From positions 1,426,001-1,490,000 of the forward strand of contig CM039005.1 in assembly GCA_017499595.2 (NCBI GenBank): a stretch of 64,000 nucleotides of DNA, given 5' to 3'. The stretch's first letter is position 1. Every line of letters begins with the position of its first letter. The stretch comes from Psilocybe cubensis (taxonomy: Eukaryota). This document shows, piece after piece, positions 4,872-33,352 of the stretch. The notes beneath the pieces are model-generated. The model did not search any database, was not told the origin of the DNA, and was given only the letters and a program-made list of their open reading frames with translations. Position numbers and translations under genes: made by a program.

Positions 4872-5719
4872 GGGTATGATTTGACCTGGGGAGTGTCGTC
4901 AAACGTAGTAAAATGCTCACCTTTATATCGAACACAAATGTACAGAGGGCCACCATTGGCACCAAGCGCACAACGAAGTCTCATGGCCCGTATCATCGAA
5001 TATATGTGCGGCCCATTACGATTTAAAAACGTTTAAACCCTATGGAAGTGAGCCTCAACACAACGATTGAATATTAAACCCAGTCGATGGCCTGTGAGAT
5101 GCAGTCATTTGTTCTGTCTCGTATGGAGACGAACGATACCTGTCAGATTCAATGTCATGCCGGGAATGCATAAGGCCCACATTCAATCGGACGAAAGTCG
5201 AAAGCGATAAGATCCTAACTGGTTAAGCATCAAGTAAGTTTGAAAGTAAACATGGCTAAGTTTAGTAGTACCGCTGGACGATAACAGACGAGAGGTCTTA
5301 ATTGTGCGTGGTGGTTCAACCTCAGACTGCGCGGCATGCATCGCCTGCATTAGATACTTGGCACAAGCTCGCGGGCCGTCACGCAGCTCTTTTTCCCATT
5401 TTACCAGTAGCACCGGTGGCCCAGCGTATTCCCATGCCTGAGTATTTCTAGGCCACCGTCGTACATATTGGTGCAGTGGGTGAAGCAAGTTGAACTTTGG
5501 CAACTGAAAAACCGGCCCTTCATTAAATTGAATTCACATGATCACGTGCAGTACGCGTTTGCGCACGGTCTGATCAGATTTTGGTCAGGTCAGTTTGAGG
5601 CCATTTCTCAAATCGGACTTCCTCACTTTCAAAAATGTCTCACTCGTTGCTCTGGTTTTCACCACGTTCTGCACATCCAAGTGCAGCATCAAGTCACACT
5701 AGTAAACTGTATATGTGCT

Positions 5720-8435
<2,716 letters not shown>

Positions 8436-23432: not shown

Positions 23433-26400
23433 ATGGACAGGGTCAATGGACAAAATCCTTCCAAACCCACAAAGGAAAAACAACGAGAATTCCAAAACAT
23501 ATTCTCAGTTCAATTTCGTTCACGACTTGCCCTCAGTTCAGAATGTCTCCCAGGCCCTTCAAAAAACGGCTATCATGTACATTGTATGCTCGTTTTTAGA
23601 CGGAAAGCACGCTCACACGCATCTATGTAGAAACCTGTACCTCAAAATGCTCCAAAATTACCGTTTGTCGCGTCAAGTCCCTGAATCGACGCGGTTTTTG
23701 CTAACAAGCTTGTATCCAGCGGAGCCCCTTCATCAAGTGCAATACAACGCTCAACTTTACCTTCAAAGGTGCTTTTTGATCCTGTAGGGAAACTCCGAAT
23801 AGTAAGTACTACTGAATTTAGTTTTTTTTCTCTCCTAAGCGACACAACTCGAGTTTTCGAGGTCTAACAATATAATTCCTTGTTCTTTTTTCCTCCACAG
23901 GCCCTTTCAAATGCTTCAGGAACTGCATCCACGCATCGACAGCCCGCATATATCGACGGAAAATCCCATGGTGTGCGAATATCCAAGATCAATGAGCACG
24001 GCCCTGGGCCCAATTCCAAAGCGATCGACGACGAAAAGGGGGAGAGATCACTGAAGCGCACTCATGCGAAGCTGAAAGAGTCCAAAAGGCATGACAATTC
24101 AGAAGAAGATGAGGAAGAACCACCACCCCGCAAATACAAGAAGATGGTTGTCGAGGATGATTCGGATGAGGAGCTGTCGCATTATAACAGCGACAGTATA
24201 TCGAGGACAAGGGTGCTTCCTCAAGTAGCCGATGAGACGGACGAGCAGGAGACTTCAGATGAAGACGAACGGTCGAGTCATGCTTCAGGCGTCAACTCAG
24301 ACGAAGATCAGTCGTCGCAAGGCACAGCGAGTCCGACGCCTCAGTTATCTGAAGAAACGGGAGATGAGGGAAGCTCGGATCGGGGTGAAGACCAGGAGTA
24401 CGACCTAGAAGTCGATACAGGTAAAAAAGAATCGCGAACATCCACGAGGAGGTCTGTTGTTGTGGTGGAAGAGTCCTCCGATGAGGCTGAGGAGGATGAG
24501 GAGGGTTCATCTGAGGGAGGTGTAGCCGGGGATCATTCGGAAGAGGAGAAGAAAAAAAGCACGCAACGGACGGAGCTGATACCCGGTTCAGATGAAGATG
24601 ACTATATGCAGCCTCCCCCTCTCCCTGTTATTGATTTCGATTCAGATGAAGAGGATGCAAAGCGTTCCTTTAAGGGAGGCGTCGTAGTGGGTCACTTGGA
24701 AGAGAAGCGAGAGAGCACGCAACCTACGGAGCTGATACCCGATTCAGATGAAGATGATTATGCGCCTCCCCCTCTTCCTGTTATTGATTTCGACCTAACC
24801 TCTGAATCATCATTGCCCTGTGAAAAAGTGGCGGCGACGGAGGAGGAGGAGGAGGAGGAAAGCGAAGAAGAGGAGAAAGTGAGAGGACGGAAGATGTTGG
24901 TGGTCTCTGATTCTGAAGGGGAAGATGCGAAATCCGCCTCGGGAAGTATGACGGAAACGGATGATGAAAGTGCGGGGCAAGAGAATGCTGAGGAACAAGA
25001 TGAAGAAGAGGATCAACTGCAGTCGGAGAATGTCACAGTTCTTACGGAGCCTGAAGGCGACAGTCTTTTCTCTGCTGATAGCCCCGGCGATGACATCGAC
25101 GAGTTGGGTGCCGATATAATGAGCCGAGCTCTGAAGCTCTTCCTAGGCGATGAAGACGCGAACATGCAGGTAGCCACTACTGCACTTGGATCTGAAAATA
25201 AACAAATGCCTGTCCCAGTACCTACCCATCCCGCGGCGTCAGCTTCTCATTCCCTGCCAGGTGTGCTTAATCATGTTATTCCCTATATCCCTTTTGCTGA
25301 CCTACCTCATCTATCCCATCTGTCGTTTCCTTCTGCAGATCGAATTCAAGCACATTCTCAACCGCAAACCTCTACGCTTGATATCCTTGATGCCATTACG
25401 CGTCTAGAGAAAAAACTCGAAGATAATATACGCGTTACCTTTGCTGAGCAAAACGCCAAATGGGAACAGGAAATTTTACTACGCGCTGAACGAGATAAAT
25501 CCCAGTTGTTGGAGATCACGCGGAGAGAGGAAGAGAGAAAGGCGGAGCGCGAGAAGGAGAGAGCAATGGCTGAGGCTAAGGAGAGGGAAAGAGAGAGGGA
25601 AAGGGAATTGGAGAGGCAGATACAAGCCGAACGCGAGTCGACGCGTCAAGCTGAACAGGAACGCGTCTTGAAGGAATTAGAACGCGAGAAAACGCGTCAA
25701 ATGGAACAGGAACGTGTTGCACGAGAGATGGACCACGAAAAAGCGCGTCAGGCTGAACAAGAGCGCGTGGCACGCGAGTTGGAACTTGAGAAAGCACATC
25801 AGGTCGCGTTGGAGCGCGAAAAGGCGCGTCAAGCTGAACTGGAACGCGAGTTAGAGAGGCAGCGGGAGTTTTCGCGGCAGGTGGAGAAAGAACGTGATGA
25901 GGAGAGACGGCGGAGGAGCGAGGAGATGGAGATGGAGAAGGCGAAGAGGTTGCAGCAGGTCTTGGAGATGCAGCGCGAGAAGAAGCGGCATGCGGAGGAA
26001 CTTGCAGCTACGAATGCGAATGCGAATGTTGTTCCTGCACCGGTGCCCCAGTTGGTGGTCCCGCCTGAGATTGAAGATCGGATTGCGAAGCGGATATTGG
26101 AGATCTTGACACCTGCCTTGGGGGAGATGTTTCATGCGCGGTTCGAGGCGGACAAGATGGCGTATCAACAAAAGATGGATCAGGAGAGAGCACAACAAAG
26201 GGAGGAGAATGGACGTATGCATGCTGAGTGGCAGAGACTTCACGAAGAAAAGCAGAATGCACGCGACGAGCGAAGGGAAAGGATATGGGAGGAGAGGCAG
26301 TCATTGCGTGATGAGCAGCGGGAAAGGGCATGGGAAGAAAGAGAGAAACTGCGTGAAGCTAGGGAGGAGCAGGGAAAAGAGGACAGATTGGAGGTTATAA

Positions 26401-27708
26401 AAAGTATGATGATGGCTTGGGAGAGTGAACACGAGGCCAAGGAGAGGCTGAGGAATGATGCGGAGCTGCGAAGGGAGGTCCAGCGTATGCAAGAAAAAGA
26501 AGATTTGAAGAGACGGGACGAGGAAAGAGACGCCAGAGAGCAAGCACGTTTTGAAGAGTTGCAGCAGAAGATTGAGGAGCGCTATTTGCAGAAAGCACAA
26601 GACGAAAAGAAAGACAAGCATCTCCAGAATGTGGCTCGAGCGCTTGGTATATTGGGAGATCGCCTGGGGGTTGTACTCAACGTCCTTGGAGTAGGACTAG
26701 ACGGTAAATTTATTGGCTCTGGGTCCATCAACATCACCACAACAGCTTCCTCTGCCGAAACGCCGTTTGCCGCTATAGGGAGAACGAGGAGAGGCCTTGC
26801 GCGCGGTGAAATCCAAGAAGATGATGAGGTTGAAGTCATCGACGTCGACATGGAGGAGACCTGGCCCACGGCGTCGACTTCGACCACGGCGCCACATATC
26901 AAGAATCCGGAGGTCAAGAGCGTGATGGAGAGGCTAACGAATGTTGAAATGGACCTTCAAGAATGTTTGGAGCGACTGAGGGATCCATTGGCGGAATTTA
27001 GTACTGACATACAGACCCTACTCCAGGCTGGGGTTAGACCAGGCATCCAAAACCAACAATCCACTGATGGTGTGTCTCCTCTCTTCTAGTTCTTGCTTTG
27101 GAAAGAGTCACCAAGACTTAATTCAGCCGACAAGTCGACAAGAATCACGCACGAGATATGGACGAGTCCTGTTAGGTCTGGAGATGTTGATACACCGAAA
27201 GCAAAGAGGAGGAGCCCTTCTATTGGTCAACAGGTCACGGCAGAGAGTTCTTCGATCATACCACAACAGCTACCCAACGATAAAATAATGGAACAGATGG
27301 GTACTTTGTCTACTTTCTCACTGGTTAATATGCAGCCACTGACCTACATTACTTTCAGACGGCCTATCTGAATTAATCTTCAACAATTCACAGATCTTCC
27401 AAGGTCAAATCCTGGAATTGAAAGCAGAAATAACGACCGTAAAGGAGCTTGTGGGCAAGTTTAATCTTCTTATTTCGATATCTTTTACTGACCCGAGATT
27501 TGTACAGGATCTATCACTTCCAGAATTGCGACACGAAAACCATCCAAGTTCCTGCAGGAACCCCCTTCCAGTCAGCGAGGATATGATGGAGATCTGTCAG
27601 AAGAAGACGATGAAGAGCCTGGGGAAGATGTGTTTGGTCCCCTCGTCGCAAATTCGTCGCCTTTCGGGATGCACGGACCGCTGGTGGCCCCTATCCCGCA
27701 TGCACCCG
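23433..27708 (+). CDS. Large acidic low-complexity/coiled-coil protein; may be the 5' half of a gene that continues into the PHD-chromodomain ORF
   Basis: Frame-consistent exon chain from ATG 23433 through the 1069-aa ORF (exon 23901-27069), then 27127-27300, 27359-27454 and 27508-27708, ending at a GTATGT donor (27709). Long E/R/Q-rich helical region. Confidence 0.7.
24525..24795 (+). repeat. Internal duplication of about 110 nt (STQxTELIPxSDEDDYxxPPPLPVIDFD, two copies)
   Basis: Near-identical DNA agcacgcaa..acggagctgataccc..ttcagatgaagatga..cctccccctct.cctgttattgatttcga at about 24558-24640 and 24714-24793. Confidence 0.85.
25628..25860 (+). repeat. Degenerate 51-nt (17-aa) tandem repeats in the coiled-coil region
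   Basis: RESTRQAEQERVLKELE / REKTRQMEQERVAREMD / HEKARQAEQERVARELE, with recurring cgcgtca...gaaca.ga.cg.gt. Confidence 0.75.
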
Positions 27709-28273
27709 GTATGTCCTTCTTTCCAAATCCGACCTTGTGGGCGACCTTGCGAACATTAGAACGACATGCTAACGACTTCTTCTTTCTCTTCCTGTATCAC
27801 TATCTCCATGGTCTCTCTCTGCCCTCCAACTTTCTGGAATCTGATACACTTGAAATTTCAAATTATCCCCAATATTTTGTTCAATTCTCTATTTTTGGCC
27901 TATTTTCAATCAAATCGGGCAATATGCCGCCCCCTGACTTTCGTCGGCTACGTCGACCTCACCTTTCTTCTTGATTGCCACCTTTGAACTTGCCCTTGCG
28001 CATTTTCTGGGTTTACCTTTCCCTTTCCTTTCTTCTGTCGTCTCTCCTTGACGACACCCGCCCACCTCAATCCGTCCTTTATACTATTGTTTGCCTCGCT
28101 TCGGTCGCTTTACATCTGTCATCTTGAACATCTGTTGGTTTTTGCTTTTGTGGTGGTATCCCTTTCCTTCTTTTTTTTGTGTTTGGATCGTTTTTATTCT
28201 TCATGCGCCGCCGTTACACTCGCGGCGATTCTTTCTTTCACCCTCTTTTGATTGCATCTGATACCTACCATCC

Positions 28274-31200
28274 ATGGCGGACTTGCCTCCGTCTCACCCA
28301 ACCAATGCGAACACCATATCGACATCGACCGACGCGCCAACGACGTCGACACATCGTGATTCGACACATTCCAACTCGGCATCGTCTACTCAACCGCATG
28401 CATCGACATCTTCCGCACCCGCTGCGCACTCGTCGACAATTTCACCCGGATCCACGACACTAATGTCGACAAACGAAATCATCGCGCGCTTCATTCCCTT
28501 TCTCAATCCTGTCCCTATTCCAATTAACTGGGATATGGGTAATAATGTCGCGTTACGACAATTAGTTTCCACTCTTCTTGGTGACCCTACAGTGTTTGAC
28601 ATGGTAGATGAAGGAGCAATGGAACAGAGTGCGACACCAGCGGAAGACCTGACAATGCAGGATGGAGCTCTGCTGCCCGGAGCGCCTTCGGCCACAGTGG
28701 AAGAGGAGCCACAGGAGCTGGTTAGCGATACCGATGCCGTTATAGATAACATGGTGCCGGTGGAAGATAACAATGCTCCTCTTGGTTTCCGAGGCGAGAA
28801 TGTGGCTCCCGATGTCGCGGTCGACAACGCGCAGGCGACTTACGAAGAGCAGACGGACGCTTCTCATGCCAGCTCCAGTTCTTTGCACCGATCTGGCTCC
28901 CATCGCCGCTCAAAACCGCCCAGAGGTCAATTTTCACCTGTCGATTGGTCCACAACGCCGAGAACTGAGACGAGAGATGGCAACGTCATACTGAACCTTA
29001 GCCCGACTGCCAAACTACTTCTCGGACCTCCCTCTACGTCTCCGTCTCCGTTCCAGAGAAGCACATCTAGCCCGATTGCAAATCCCAGTATGAACCCCAG
29101 CGCGCTGCACAATCTCGCCAGTTCTTTATCAGCAAGTAGGCATACGATAGCAACGACACCTCCGCTGGCGATGACCCCCACCAGATCCTACACACTGCCG
29201 CCCCCGATGGAAGGCTCAATCGCTGAGCTGAGGAAGGCGACGTTAGGGACGGCGTATACAGATGCATATGTATACGGAGAAGCGCTGAAGAGAGAGCGCA
29301 GCTTTGGTGGTCATGAGACGGGCGATGGAAGGGAAGGCAGAGTAGACATGGTTATGGGTGCAGAGGCGGGCGAGAGAATGTTGAGTCCCCAGAGCGAAGA
29401 GGAGGAAGACGAAGAGGACAACGGCGATGCTGAAGAAGGAAATGAGGATGAGGATGAGGACGATGATGATGACGAGCAGAGGGATGAATTAATGGACGAT
29501 GATCAAGACCAGACGGTCCAGGGGTCGAAAGGTGCTGCACTCGCTTCCGGCGTGGCGTCTATATCTCTGGAAGGGGAATCAACCGCGGACATTGTGTTGA
29601 AAGAGACCACAGAGTCCAATGCATCCTCATTGTCAACTCTCACATCTTTGGCTCCTTCGACTGTTGGATCTACTCCCGAACGTGACATACAGACAAACCC
29701 TACTCCGTCAGCTCAGGCTGATTCTTCATCTTTGCCTACGATCGATGCAACAACAACCAATTTTGTTTCTCTAAGAAAGGATTCTACTATACGTCCTATC
29801 TCTACTGTCGAACCCTCGAACTCGGCTGCCACTTTGTCTGTATCTCATACCGCTTCAACTGCGACTTTGTCAACGTCCGCCACTACAACGATCCCATTCA
29901 CAGATTCTCAGCAATCTCAGACGATAGAAGACGAAGATACTGTGCACGCCTTGGTTATGGTGGGATCTCAGGATTCACAATTCAACGAAGAGATGTATGA
30001 TGTCAATGCTGATGATACGATGGGTAGCGCGCTCACATCTTACGGATACGAGGATGATGAAGATGTGACAGCGCCTGTTCCGGAAAACACATTGTCACCG
30101 CTCTTCACAACACCTTCGCAGACCCCCGCCCCCCAAGTTTCCTCTGCTGGCCCGTCCTCGTCACTTCAACGTCAAGAATCTGCTCATGGTGGTTCTTCAT
30201 TCGATGAAGACCACACGATGGACACGTCTACTCCCATCAAGGCCAAATCTGCAGCTTTCAAACATGGTTCTAATCTCGACGAAGAGGAGAATTCAGAAAC
30301 GACGAGGATTGTCCAGGCGAAGAAAGAATTGAATAGCCCGATAACTGTTCCAGCGCAGATTGGACGAAAGTATACGTATATCCCGTCCGAATCGCCCTCA
30401 CCCAGTAGGATGTCCAAGCCTGCTAAATTCATAGCCCAGGCAAATCCGAAAGCGTCGACGTCGAAAGCCCATGCTACGAATGAGATTGCGGAAAACGTTT
30501 CTAATGCTCCTGGAACGTCGTCTCAGCGCGCACCCATGAAGCCCAAGAAGGAAGCTCTGACCATCAAGAAAGAGAAACCAAGCACGTCGCAGCCCCCGGA
30601 CGATGTAATATCCATTTCCTCTGATACCGACGATGAAATCGTGGTTAGGCCATCTCAAACTCAGACGCAGAAAAACCCTCCGACACTTTCGCAGAAACCT
30701 TCTACGCAGTCGAGAGCGACTGTTCCGAGGCCAATCCCTGATGCGAGACGCAAGGCTTCTGCTAAGACCAATTCTCCTGAAATTGTCGACCTTACAACAC
30801 CTGTGAGGGCTGCCCCTGCGGCAGCAGCAATGAGTTCTCGCCCACAAGTGCGAACTTTTGACCCTCTTTCTCATCTCGCGTCAACTTCGAAGGCTCTGTC
30901 TGAAAATCCTAAGAAGCTTGTAGAATCTGTAAAGCCTGTGCCCGTTCAGGAGAAACCAACGACACACAAACCCGAGGATATCAAAGGGAAAGGGAAAGAA
31001 ACTGCCGCACCGGCACCCGTGCCTGAACCTGAACCTGCTCCCGAATCCCGATTTTCCTCCCCATTGACCGAAGAGGAATCTGAGGTCGAGGAACCGGCCC
31101 CTCCTGTGCGCTCCCCCTTTGACCTCGTGAAAGCTACCGCGCGCATAATACAGCCGCCCAATGCCTCCGACGAAGATGCCCCTGTCATAAGGAATCAGAC

Positions 31201-32643
31201 CAAGAAGAAGATATCATTACGACCCGCCCCTTCTTTTGCCTCAGGATTGTTCGACAGCAACCTGACGGGACAGAGCAAAGCAACCGGTACGACTGGAGCG
31301 CCCCCAAAAAAGAGCACCTTTACCGACCGGCTGACAGCAAAGTTGGGTAAAAGCGTGGCAGCTACGAGGATAAAGAAGCGTAAGCGCCCCGAGGCGAGCC
31401 CTGATGTGTCTAATGAAAATGCAGCAGCTGAAGATGTGCCTGAACGTGAGCAACCGCCCTTAAAGAGGGCAAGGGCGCGTAGTGCTGCTACTACCGCGTC
31501 TTCCTCCTCTGTGCCCCCAGTAGGTAAAGGGAAGGTGGTGGATCTGCGGCGGGCAAGTCTGAGAAATAAAGAAATGGTAATTAAGGAGGAAGCCTCATCA
31601 ACAAGGTACCCAATGCGGTCACCCCGAAAAGATTCTGTCGGAAGCTCCGCTGCTTCTATATCGACTCCCACTTTGAAGAAAAAGCGCGAATCTGATCTGG
31701 TGTGGCCTAAGATGCAGAATCCTAATTTTGATCGCGTACGTATATAGCTTTCACAATCAGAGGATTTAATTTAACTCGATTATCTCTCGACACATACATA
31801 GTTTGTCAAATGCGACGAGTGGGTAAACTATCCTTGAGTGGCATGTAGTTTTATACTGACCATGAACTGCTTACTATCTGCCTAGATGCGAGACGTGGTA
31901 CCACATTGGGTGCGTAGGCCTGGAGCCGGACGACAAACACCTACAAGATACAGAACATTATGTCTGTCCGGTGTGCACAGCTGGCATCCCCAAGTGCGTT
32001 CAATACACTTAGACTTCCATGTGTATTTTCTGATGGATAGCTACTTCCTATTCTATTGTATCCTTGACTTAATCAGAAGCAGTGAGTCTTTTGCACGATA
32101 TTTCTTTCCTCAAAATTCTAAATCAAAATCATGTCTGGATTTCGTAGAATCCCCTGTCAAGAAAATCAACGATGAGGAAGTCAACGGCCTCAAAGCACCT
32201 TGCGCCAGGCCGCGCTGTCTCCTAACCTATGTCAAACGGCGCACCAAGAACAAGAATTCACAGCAACTGCTTCAAGAGCCACAGGTATACCTCGTGGAGG
32301 CCCTCGTAGGGCGGCGCAAGACGGTCGTTAGTGGAAAGGGGATATCTTACGAATATCTAGTTAAATGGCAAAAGTAAGGCTCTTTTCCAGTACCCGTGGC
32401 TTATCCGAGACCTCTTCATTTTATTGATTCACCATCTACTTTTTACATAGCTACGATTATGTCGACGCAACTGTTGAAAACCTAGACAGCATGGGGATGT
32501 CTAATCCTGGCCCTCTTGTCGAAGCTTTTGAAAATCAGGCCATTGCTGAAGGTAACAACTTCGAAGCAAGTGACACTGTTATCCTCCAGGAAGCTGTCGA
32601 AGCCGGCTGGACCAATGACATGGTCTATACAAAGCCTAAATGA
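28274..32643 (+). CDS. Large disordered protein with C-terminal PHD-like finger and chromodomain
   Basis: The 1157-aa S/T/P-rich ORF splices to FVKCDECETWYHIGCVGL...YVCPVC (PHD-like), then YLVEALVGRR...YEYLVKWQNYDYVDAT (chromodomain with Y/W/Y cage residues). Stop at 32641-32643. Confidence 0.85.
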
Positions 32644-33352
32644 TTTCTTGCCCGAATATCTTTCTTGCCCTATTTTTTCCCTTTTCCAAGTTTTGGTCAT
32701 CGCTTATATGTCAACTTTCTTATCAGATATCTCTCGAACCTCTTTTCTGTGTCATTCCTCCTCGTTTCACTGTACATAACACAATTGTCATCACTACGCA
32801 TTATCGCTATCCATCATCGTCTACTACGCTTTTTTCTTGGAATTTTCTCTAGATACCTCATCCTATACCCTCTGCTTCATTGTCCAGTTTCTAGCCATCT
32901 CATCATCTTGCTACCACTTATGCACCTGTATATACGGTATATGCTCTCGAATTCCTATGTTTGTTTACCTTGTTCATTGCTCAGCTTGCTTTTACAACCA
33001 TGTGTATTCACCCTACCTGATGGTTAATTTCCTAGTCCGTTAATCCATATTAGAGAAATGTGTACATAGTAAATGCGGTACTAATATGAACGACTAAATT
33101 ATGGTGCGTCCTGGTATCGTGCTCAAATAATTAAGGAATAAATGGATGTGAGCAAAGTATGCAAAGAAAAAAAAAATAGAACGTGTGATCGGGGTGGACA
33201 TTAATAGTTTCCAAGGATTCTCATGGGTATGGATGAAGAAAGAGGAAAATATAGAAAGAAGGCATCTCCAACCAAGGTCGATGTGTAAAGTATCACAGAA
33301 ACACAGGTTGACTGACGACCACCATGTGCCGACCCCGACAGAGAGTGGAATG

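Follow-up and report, generated by a model that had tools for sequence, protein, structure and literature searches.

Gene content of the locus

Within the analyzed window, a 64-kb stretch of Psilocybe cubensis DNA, the NCBI annotation places two genes at the locus, an upstream gene for a coiled-coil protein and a downstream gene, JR316_0008964, for a protein with a PHD finger and a chromodomain (Table 1). The upstream frame is open from ATG 23433 and carries the conserved motifs EMD.QE (26943) and DVFGP (27627). An earlier note on this DNA had made this frame dependent on a GC donor at 27455, and a joint in an RNA-like contig confirmed the corresponding intron, which runs from GCAAGT to ACAG and contains the branch motif TACTGAC. 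Pfam gave no match on the large exons or on the related proteins P0005 and P0008, so that the name "RFX-type winged-helix", which a source gives to the Gymnopilus junonius ortholog of the coiled-coil protein, is not confirmed by it. A protein word search with P0001 returned its own NCBI record and the ortholog P0004 and nothing else, and an HMMER search with the first 400 residues returned four proteins. When the donor at 27709 is left unused, the upstream protein ends in a read-through tail that is not conserved: its counterparts stop after ~16 codons at the orthologous metagenome locus L001 and after ~19 residues in Agrocybe pediades (P0008), and a protein word search with the tail (27510-27971) found no match among longer proteins.

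Table 1. Features of the locus, with positions counted from the first letter of the window.
Feature	Positions	Strand	Basis
Upstream coding part, 8 exons, 1273 codons and 1 base (phase 1)	23433-27708	+	RNA-like contig joints of X1
GC-AG intron, 53 nt, setting the upstream frame	27455-27507	+	X1 joint 27453/27507, 2 ambiguous letters
Candidate alternative intron, 857 nt	27709-28565	+	Donor, branch heptamer, first downstream AG
5' splice site GTATGT of the candidate intron	27709-27714	+	Direct reading of the sequence
Last AG ahead of the zone	27758-27759	+	7 nt upstream of the branch heptamer
AG-free zone, 804 nt	27760-28563	+	Dinucleotide count, shuffles, codon-based test
Candidate branch heptamer TGCTAAC	27767-27773	+	Branch A 27772, 793 nt to the acceptor
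Pyrimidine-rich non-coding part of the zone	27776-28273	+	C+T 62-76% per 100 nt; 4 upstream ATGs
TGA ending the upstream protein if the donor is unused	27972-27974	+	88-codon read-through tail
Alternative N-terminal coding stretch, ATG 28274 and 97 AG-free codons	28274-28565	+	Start of NCBI model P0003
Candidate 3' splice site TTAG|TT, first AG past the branch point	28564-28565	+	Sequence
Exons shared by the fused and short forms	28566-31735, 31802-31818, 31886-31993	+	X1 and X2 joints
Further shared exons (stop TGA 32641)	32077-32081, 32148-32373, 32451-32643	+	X1 and X2 joints; micro-exons located

The exons shared by the fused and the short form encode the C-terminal PHD finger and chromodomain (precomputed Pfam matches PF00628 and PF00385 on P0003). 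Exon structure was taken from X1 and X2, contigs of two runs from one study whose RNA origin is presumed; they were taken to derive from RNA because every one of the 12 joints falls in X1 or X2, and X3 and X4 have none. Of the 14 bins of the upstream gene, X2 covers 3. Such blanks count neither for nor against a fused form, and the X1 contig depths of ~6-13 upstream and 40-51 downstream are not a measure by which the two genes can be ranked. Over the zone, the contigs begin at 27758 (X1) and 27782 (X2), contig ends that do not mark RNA starts, and two of them (X1 record 4, 27758-29960; X2 record 8, 27782-28671) run straight through the candidate acceptor, colinear with the downstream ORF.

The AG-free zone and its splice signals

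Between the two annotated genes, the + strand shows a gap of 806 from one AG to the next, compared with a runner-up AG gap of 187 and a largest gap of 321 (CC) for any other dinucleotide in the 64-kb window; the background for AG gaps comprised this window and eight loci. The zone within this gap (A.19, C.31, G.15, T.34; purine 34%) would be expected from its composition to contain 23.6 AG, and it contains none, bearing out the earlier note. In 20,000 mononucleotide shuffles of the zone the lowest count was 9, so that zero was never reached, and in sliding 800-nt windows the ratio of observed to expected AG was 0.04 at the zone and at least 0.55 elsewhere on both strands. The depletion is specific to the dinucleotide and to the strand, as the zone contains 33 GA and 77 CT. 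An equally pyrimidine-rich stretch of 3' UTR (32650-33050), which the earlier note had offered as a control, does contain AG, with 7 observed vs. 9.2 expected.

The zone holds a conserved alternative coding start that the earlier note missed. The downstream ORF opens inside the zone: its codons 1-97, which fill the last 291 nt of the zone, have an ATG of their own and an N-terminal sequence kept among species, and both the NCBI and JGI models begin there. A motif around I-P-x-I-N-W-D, encoded at ~28472-28564, is common to P0003, P0004/L001, P0006 and P0007. The N-terminal 63 residues of the downstream protein are S/T/A/P-rich, and the coding part of the zone specifies almost no Lys or Glu. Given the downstream protein and the codon usage of the locus, the probability that this coding part would be AG-free is 1.65e-5, with a mean of 8.9 AG expected.

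The splice signals named in the earlier note, a GTATGT donor and a TGCTAAC heptamer, are both in place. The heptamer begins 8 nt into the zone, and ~500 nt at 62-76% pyrimidine come after it; the last AG ahead of the zone, being 5' of the heptamer, lies upstream of the candidate branch point. As had been claimed, joining 27708 to 28566 keeps the frame (G|TT), since a Val codon of the downstream ORF begins with the acceptor G, and the protein that had been put at roughly 2,500 aa comes to about 2534 aa. The heptamer class TGCTRAC occurs 11 times in the window, the shorter CTRAC has a frequency of ~1.3-1.5 per kb, and TGCTRAC serves as the branch motif of two RNA-supported introns in the gene (A 23704 and A 25300, 15 and 38 nt from their 3' splice sites).

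The ten measured RNA-supported introns of the two genes are 53-99 nt long, compared with 857 nt for the candidate. In models of 3' splice-site choice, the spliceosome uses whichever AG comes first after the branch point. This rule holds locally, since in the 6 of the 10 introns with a CTRAY motif (branch A 15-38 nt from the acceptor) no AG intervenes between the branch A and the acceptor except within 5 nt of the A. The P. cubensis zone contains four further CTRAY motifs, the nearest to the acceptor at 102 nt, and a second TGCTGAC lies ~65 nt from the acceptor in the L001 zone; the branch actually used is therefore not fixed by the motifs. A short intron ending at the last AG ahead of the zone (27709-27759, 51 nt; 52 nt in L001) was rejected as the main reading: it has no CTRAY inside in either species, and the L001 version ends in AAG and has a length not divisible by 3.

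Searches for a structured RNA in the zone gave no Rfam match in 27000-29000 at E up to 1. RNA folding z-scores, from 20 shuffles each, were -2.5 for the window zone and -0.14 for the L001 zone; therefore, no consistent fold brings the branch point and the acceptor together.

Orthologous loci and gene models

The layout is shared by a distant relative at L001, an 18.8-kb metagenome locus of ortholog P0004, which has no nucleotide similarity to the window zone; blastn between the two zones gave a best E of 0.15, with 12-nt matches. Nevertheless, L001 has an AG gap of 785 nt (5079 to 5864; zone 5081-5863), compared with a next largest gap of 288 for any dinucleotide in the locus. This zone would be expected to hold 27.9 AG, the lowest count in 5000 shuffles was 11, and for its 114 codons the probability of being AG-free, given the protein and codon usage, is 2e-9. 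As no similarity is detected between the zones, the absence of AG has outlasted complete sequence turnover.

The anatomy of the two loci is the same throughout: a phase-1 donor after DVFGPL..NSSP (GTGAGT at 5029 in L001), a last AG 51 or 52 nt on (5079-80 in L001), a 7-nt spacer, TGCT(A/G)AC (TGCTGAC at 5088-94 in L001), the AG-free zone, and an acceptor whose G is codon base 1. Because this G is the first codon base after a phase-1 donor, both species keep the frame across the fusion; by chance, an in-frame acceptor would be found with a probability of 1/3 per species. The distance from branch to acceptor is 773 nt in L001 compared with 793 nt in P. cubensis, and the L001 zone contains 10 upstream ATGs compared with 4. 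The earlier note's AG exclusion zone, with the branch point ~790 nt from the acceptor, thus recurs with the same layout in L001, whereas its proposed switch between fused and separate proteins lacks a 27708/28566 joint in the X1 and X2 contigs, assemblies that drop rare forms and, in the case of X1, have no cover over 27646-27757, where the donor lies.

In three further taxa, species B (L003), C (L006) and D (L008), the homologs of the two halves meet at that place across one phase-1 intron, 214 nt long in B, 53 nt in C and ~50 nt in D. Since this single short intron joins one reading frame, the halves are one gene in these taxa and not two independent neighbouring genes. Across the eight loci scanned, an AG-free zone was thus found in one of the four other taxa with DNA, that of L001; in B, C and D an ordinary short intron takes the place of the zone. 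In a seven-row tree built on the conserved block, B and C+D fall outside a group formed by the four taxa whose layout is split or long-intron (support 83/96).

For Agrocybe pediades and Gymnopilus junonius, the gene models include both fused and split forms. The junction residue in A. pediades is Ala (G|CN) in the split model P0007 and Pro (C|CN) in the fused model P0009, and the C-terminus R-E-F of the upstream-only model P0008 fits read-through of C|GT GAG TTT, a GTGAGT-like donor. At the protein level, the A. pediades models thus appear to fit the donor and acceptor layout of P. cubensis. A protein word search with the P0009 junction region returned only P0005, the fused model of G. junonius. 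The annotation behind P0009 over-merges, as the prediction also takes in an unrelated GH47 mannosidase, and the fused models are to be read as predictions. In G. junonius, the N-terminal exon may be spliced on and not contiguous, because the junction residue of P0006 is Pro and not Ala. Combined, the comparisons suggest that a single ancestral gene probably underlies the two annotated ones, a point missed by the earlier note.

Proposed mechanism and alternative explanations

The stretch 27709-28565 is most likely an unusually long optional intron that fuses two genes into one protein. Put in full, we consider it probable that it is an enlarged, optional phase-1 intron joining the halves of one older gene, and that its freedom from AG has been selected. 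The spliceosome would pair the donor with the branch A at 27772, ~63 nt on, a spacing normal for short fungal introns, after which the first AG downstream of the branch point would be the obligatory acceptor. Selection would keep the next 793 nt free of AG, directing splicing to the in-frame acceptor at 28565 and yielding a fused protein of ~2534 aa with coiled coil, PHD finger and chromodomain. The same stretch between branch and acceptor would double as the leader of a shorter, downstream-only form and as codons 1-97 of its protein; the use of AG-free codons only, with scarce Lys and Glu, would follow from this stretch also being intron interior. On this reading, the fused mRNA would be made in P. 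cubensis, A27772 would be the branch used, the short form would start at a promoter inside the intron, and the choice between fused and separate forms would be regulated. A distance of 793 nt is mechanistically demanding, as S. pombe reporter introns with a spacing of at least 30 nt are already reported to be poorly spliced (PMC9508853). A more specific version is put forward tentatively: a branch near the donor followed by a linear AG search of ~800 nt might make the second step slow and tunable, giving upstream-only, ~2500-aa fused and downstream-only products, and the protein-coding alternative first exon might have been held AG-free across agaric genera.

A composition effect can be set aside. 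The purine content of the zone and the S/T/A/P-rich N-terminus could evoke a pyrimidine-rich intergenic tract running into low-complexity Ser/Thr-rich coding sequence, yet the shuffles, the codon-based probabilities in both species and the recurrence of the zone at the orthologous place in L001 refute chance, and the equally pyrimidine-rich control has 7 AG of 9.2 expected. It is also improbable that the downstream mRNA avoids AG in its leader and 5' coding region for purposes such as binding of proteins, stability or control of translation, with the donor and branch motifs incidental. The zone does form the 5' part of contig RNA colinear with the downstream ORF, and its many upstream ATGs in both species suggest a regulated leader, but contigs cannot show RNA starts. 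Furthermore, we know of no mechanism besides 3' splice-site choice that reads a bare AG on RNA. Such a leader would also leave unexplained why both zones start within 8 nt of TGCTRAC, after a consensus donor at intron-like spacing and with CTRAC being infrequent, and why both end at an in-frame AG.

An unlikely though more serious alternative is that splicing stalls after the first step and the read-through RNA is cut or discarded, through TER1-like cleavage or spliceosome-mediated decay, so that the zone acts as an insulator, the genes stay separate and no fused protein is made. The contigs, in which the zone is retained and the fused junction lacking, and the separate genes annotated by NCBI and JGI agree with such stalling. 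In S. pombe TER1, a long distance from branch to acceptor combined with a strong branch site releases first-step intermediates (PMC4299874), and the fission yeast limit of at least 30 nt for impaired splicing (PMC9508853) points the same way. Against stalling, both species with DNA have their first AG in frame, and in the more distant taxa an ordinary intron makes the gene continuous, so the fused protein would be the older state. A cleaved 5' exon would be an mRNA without a stop codon or poly(A) tail, and stalling needs no AG-free stretch of 800 nt. TER1-type cleavage pairs a long branch-to-acceptor distance with full complementarity of the branch site to U2 (PMC4299874). The distance here, 793 nt, is long in this sense. 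The fully U2-complementary branch consensus is UACUAAC; UGCUAAC departs from it at 1 position and UGCUGAC at 2.

Relation to known systems

The P. cubensis zone would be a variant of a type described in vertebrates, the AG exclusion zones with distant branch points. The description of those zones, for example at alpha-tropomyosin exon 3 and PTB exon 11 (Gooding et al. 2006, PMC1431707), shares with the present case a long AG-free stretch before the 3' splice site, a consensus branch sequence and pyrimidine tract at its 5' end, an AG-free length kept between species without alignable sequence, and an association with alternative products. Verified branch points reported there lie up to ~400 nt away (PTB exon 11 at -351), with -566 predicted in Fugu, and a human zone of 1126 nt has a mouse ortholog of only 229. 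By comparison, the P. cubensis distance of 793 nt (773 in L001) occurs in a fungus with local introns of 53-99 nt, the candidate branch point lies beside the donor so that the zone is almost the whole intron, and the zone carries a conserved protein-coding alternative start purged of AG. A literature search for AG exclusion zones in fungi returned matches on human splicing only.

Two fungal systems are also related. The fission yeast factors Sde2, Cactin/Cay1 and Tls1 (PMC9508853) likewise concern a fungal second step limited by the spacing of branch and acceptor, which accessory factors could regulate; "distant" there means ~20-40 nt, with at least 30 nt in ~40 of ~5250 S. pombe introns, so that the present spacing is >20 times longer. 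TER1 (PMC4299874) similarly combines a long branch-to-acceptor distance with a strong branch site, which there uncouples the two steps; in contrast, TER1 is non-coding and its released 5' exon is the product, whereas the 5' exon here is an ORF that continues in frame across the intron. The locus further resembles intron-internal alternative first exons and gene fission or fusion, in that a long protein and a shorter one with its own N-terminus share C-terminal exons and annotators split or fuse the locus by species. Unlike the usual alternative first exon, the one here is unspliced and runs through the acceptor, with G. junonius a possible exception; because the candidate acceptor lies inside its coding sequence, AG avoidance would be forced.

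If true, the tentative reading with a slow, tunable second step would give the longest functional branch-to-acceptor distance known to us and the first fungal AG exclusion zone to be described. The locus bears on the reach of the first-AG search and on distance as a regulatory timer. In this tractable fungus it would be a natural, conserved case, its distance being ~20-50 times what is usual locally, and therefore a single inserted AG should redirect splicing. The comparisons also suggest that in P. cubensis the annotation divides what was a single ancestral gene, and scanning for AG-free stretches could cheaply detect hidden long introns and gene fusions genome-wide in fungi. Within the zone itself, a splicing signal would constrain codon and amino-acid choice over ~100 codons.

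The AG-free zone and the genes on either side

Between the AG at 27758-27759 and the next at 28564-28565, the + strand has an AG gap of 806; over the 64-kb window, which served as the background, the next-largest AG gap is 187, and gaps of the other 15 dinucleotides reach at most 321. The earlier note's claim that 27760-28563 lacks AG therefore held: for these 804 nt (A.19, C.31, G.15, T.34), 23.6 AGs were expected and none observed, with a minimum of 9 in 20,000 shuffles. The donor GTATGT at 27709 and the TGCTAAC at 27767-27773 were likewise confirmed by reading the sequence, and the pyrimidine-rich control at 32650-33050 does contain AGs (7 vs 9.2 expected). In sliding 800-nt windows, AG observed/expected was 0.04 at the zone vs at least 0.55 elsewhere on both strands. 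Both GA (33 occurrences) and CT, the reverse complement of AG (77), are common, so the loss of AG is specific to the dinucleotide and the strand. CG was observed 55 times vs 38.9 expected, and TA 29 vs 52.

At NCBI the downstream ORF is protein JR316_0008964 (P0003; 1358 aa; Psilocybe cubensis), with PHD and Chromo domains in precomputed Pfam. It starts at ATG 28274, and the zone is therefore made up of the first 97 P0003 codons and, ahead of them, 514 nt that are pyrimidine-rich and non-coding. Given this peptide and the codon usage of the two large exons, the probability of an AG-free encoding is 1.65e-5 (mean 8.9 AG expected). The 97 residues include no Lys and one Glu, compared to 5.5% Lys and 7.9% Glu in the remainder of P0003. 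The upstream gene (ATG 23433, 8 exons, 1273 codons) reaches a phase-1 end at 27708, with exon joints taken from the contigs of the RNA-like runs X1 and X2; these include a GC-AG intron at 27455-27507, bearing out the GC donor on which the upstream frame had been said to depend. Joining 27708 to 28566 leaves the frame open as predicted (G/TT, the slash marking the junction), and the computed product of ~2534 aa agrees with the roughly 2,500 aa proposed.

Ten RNA-supported introns in the region measured 53-99 nt. Six contain a CTRAY motif, with 15-38 nt from branch A to acceptor, and the only AGs in between fall within 5 nt of that A. Two of the ten have TGCTRAC as their branch motif. In the candidate intron (27709-28565) the heptamer lies 63 nt past the donor, yet 793 nt from the first AG.

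Several smaller features were noted. The AG-free coding part at 28300-28470 is CpG-rich with many TCGACA/CGAC repeats. The 130 nt ahead of the last AG (27628-27757), which are coding sequence of the upstream gene, are also AG-free (gap 132, fourth largest in the window), and the equivalent exon of the metagenome locus L001 has normal AG density. Among the variants listed within the species, neither T>C at 28249 (X1, X2) nor a 4-nt deletion at 28262 (DNA-like run X4) makes an AG.

Conservation of the zone and its absence from other taxa

A metagenome scan returned eight loci, with a large AG gap only in L001, the locus of protein P0004 and the one species outside P. cubensis whose DNA displays the zone. 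Its upstream exon carries a DVFGPL..NSSP motif followed by a phase-1 end; the G of the next AG (5864-5865) opens a codon of the downstream ORF, giving an in-frame candidate intron of 837 nt with 114 AG-free codons (P = 2e-9). No similarity between the two zones was found by blastn (best E 0.15). The same anatomy without sequence similarity indicates that the AG-free state, boundaries and frame are conserved though the sequence is not. In both the window (27758-27773) and L001 (5079-5094), the last AG lies exactly 7 nt before TGCTRAC and 51 or 52 nt past the donor, a match that may be a coincidence, at odds of roughly 1 in 20, or a piece of a conserved element.

Features of the ortholog, relatives and downstream gene
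Feature	Locus	Position	Details
AG gap	L001	5079 to 5864	785 nt; AG expected 27.9; fewest in 5000 shuffles 11; next-largest gap, any dinucleotide, 288
Donor GTGAGT	L001	5029	
Last AG	L001	5079-5080	
TGCTGAC	L001	5088-5094	7 nt after last AG
Species B intron	L002-L005	2526 to 2739 (L003)	214 nt; GTAAGT to TTAG
Species C intron	L006	7440-7492	53 nt; TAG/TT
Species D intron	L007/L008		~50 nt in L008
Micro-exon AAGCA	window, +	32077-32081	5 nt; CAG acceptor before, GTGAGT donor after
Micro-exon	window, +	31802-31818	17 nt; codes part of PHD finger start

Counting AGs in orthologous intervals, a check proposed in the earlier note, thus gave a divided answer: L001 is AG-free throughout its gap, whereas species B, C and D have a short intron instead. 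In these three, homologs of the upstream and downstream motifs lie on one strand with a single phase-1 intron between them, and the two halves form one gene. The downstream motifs used were FSPVDW, SYTLP and RMLSPES; the upstream motifs were EMD.QE and VVRHEM in species C, VVRHEM alone in species B (the EMD region being seen as a tblastn hit), and just looser forms of both in species D. No internal start or N-terminal motif was found in the species B, C and D loci.

A conserved-block tree clustered P. cubensis, Gymnopilus junonius, Agrocybe pediades and L001 (support 83/96); species B and the pair C+D (98/95) fell outside this cluster. It comprised seven rows, omitting L002, L004, L005 and L007 (species duplicates), P0004 and P0006 (duplicates of rows used), P0008 and P0009. 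On this unrooted tree, the long form is presumed to be the derived one.

When the first 400 residues were used in a full HMMER search, only four proteins matched. In G. junonius, one model (P0005, 1571 aa) is fused: the P. cubensis upstream protein matches its residues 443-543 (E 4e-9) and the downstream protein its residues 935-1161. The separate model of this species, P0006, lies on another contig and has the same sequence as P0005 from one point onwards. At the junction P0006 has Pro instead of the Ala expected from an uninterrupted reading, so splicing may attach its N-terminal exon to the shared acceptor, with no run through that acceptor; the G. junonius layout may therefore differ from that of P. 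cubensis. The A. pediades models are upstream-only (P0008), downstream-only (P0007) and fused (P0009). The junction residue is Ala in P0007 and Pro in P0009, a pair suggesting a phase-1 acceptor within a continuous ORF (G/CN vs C/CN), and P0008 continues R-E-F past the junction, as C/GT GAG TTT would give. In P0009 (2350 aa) the coiled-coil and PHD/chromo protein is fused to an unrelated alpha-mannosidase domain of the GH47 family (residues 7-410), and this model is probably over-merged. As the models are predictions and P0009 carries GH47, the fused models alone are weak evidence.

RNA-like contigs

Although no run is recorded as RNA, all 12 listed joints come from X1, X2 or both, the DNA-like X3 and X4 have none, and GT..AG ends are seen in most, indicating that X1 and X2, which belong to one study and supply the RNA evidence as contigs, contain spliced RNA. 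X1 record 4 is colinear across 27758-29960 and X2 record 8 across 27782-28671, both crossing the acceptor unspliced; RNA that runs on into the downstream ORF therefore includes the zone. The 27708/28566 junction, for which RNA evidence had been sought, was absent from the X1 and X2 contigs, which omit rare forms and show no RNA ends; X1 lacks cover over 27646-27757, leaving the donor itself unobserved. The RNA form seen is the colinear one, and the fused mRNA, branch-point use and an internal promoter are predicted. X1 contigs end at ~27645 and restart at 27758, the very position of the last AG, and X2 restarts at 27782. Low cover may explain this 112-nt hole, with the donor inside, as may a variant bubble, RNA starting close to the branch point or a lariat-intermediate effect.

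Proposed origin and function of the zone

By the definition of Gooding et al. (PMC1431707) this is an AG exclusion zone: it shares with the zones described there the absence of AG, a 5' consensus branch site and pyrimidine tract, and conservation where the sequences cannot be aligned. The simplest explanation would be a single ancestral gene whose phase-1 intron lengthened between branch point and acceptor and gained an internal start bearing its own conserved N-terminal motif, with AG kept out so that transcripts begun at the upstream gene could still reach the in-frame acceptor. In the chief alternative reading, the device may do no more than stall read-through transcripts or cleave them, like the TER1 processing outlined in PMC4299874; the conserved frame and the relatives with a single gene make this less likely.

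In PMC1431707, verified vertebrate distant branch points extend up to ~400 nt, with -566 predicted in Fugu. According to PMC9508853, a branch-to-acceptor distance of at least 30 nt already impairs splicing in fission yeast, where only ~40 of ~5250 introns reach 30 nt. A literature search combining AG exclusion zones with fungal terms returned papers on human splicing only, and broader searches brought up no fungal case. Combined, these distances and the search suggest a new form of AG exclusion zone, differing from the vertebrate ones in its ~790-nt length, its conservation in fungi and its overlap with a coding alternative first exon.

Micro-exons and assembly observations

Both micro-exons of the downstream gene are supported by X1 and X2, whose contigs have exactly 5 letters between 31993 and 32148 and 17 letters between joint sides 31735 and 31886. 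A 22-residue stretch of P0003 at the shorter micro-exon is absent from the A. pediades ortholog P0007, and the NCBI model thus seems to retain 32082-32147 as coding.

A 24504/29444 joint in X1 and X2 skips 4939 nt with GT..AT ends, has only 25 letters on one side and connects two acidic low-complexity stretches; together with loose contig ends clustering at 25580-25617 and 29442-29476 in all runs, it most likely represents repeat-induced assembly chimeras. Additionally, a 24-nt insertion after 33302 is present in X1 and X2 and not in X3, X4 or the window, and one base at 33167 of the window is missing from all four runs.
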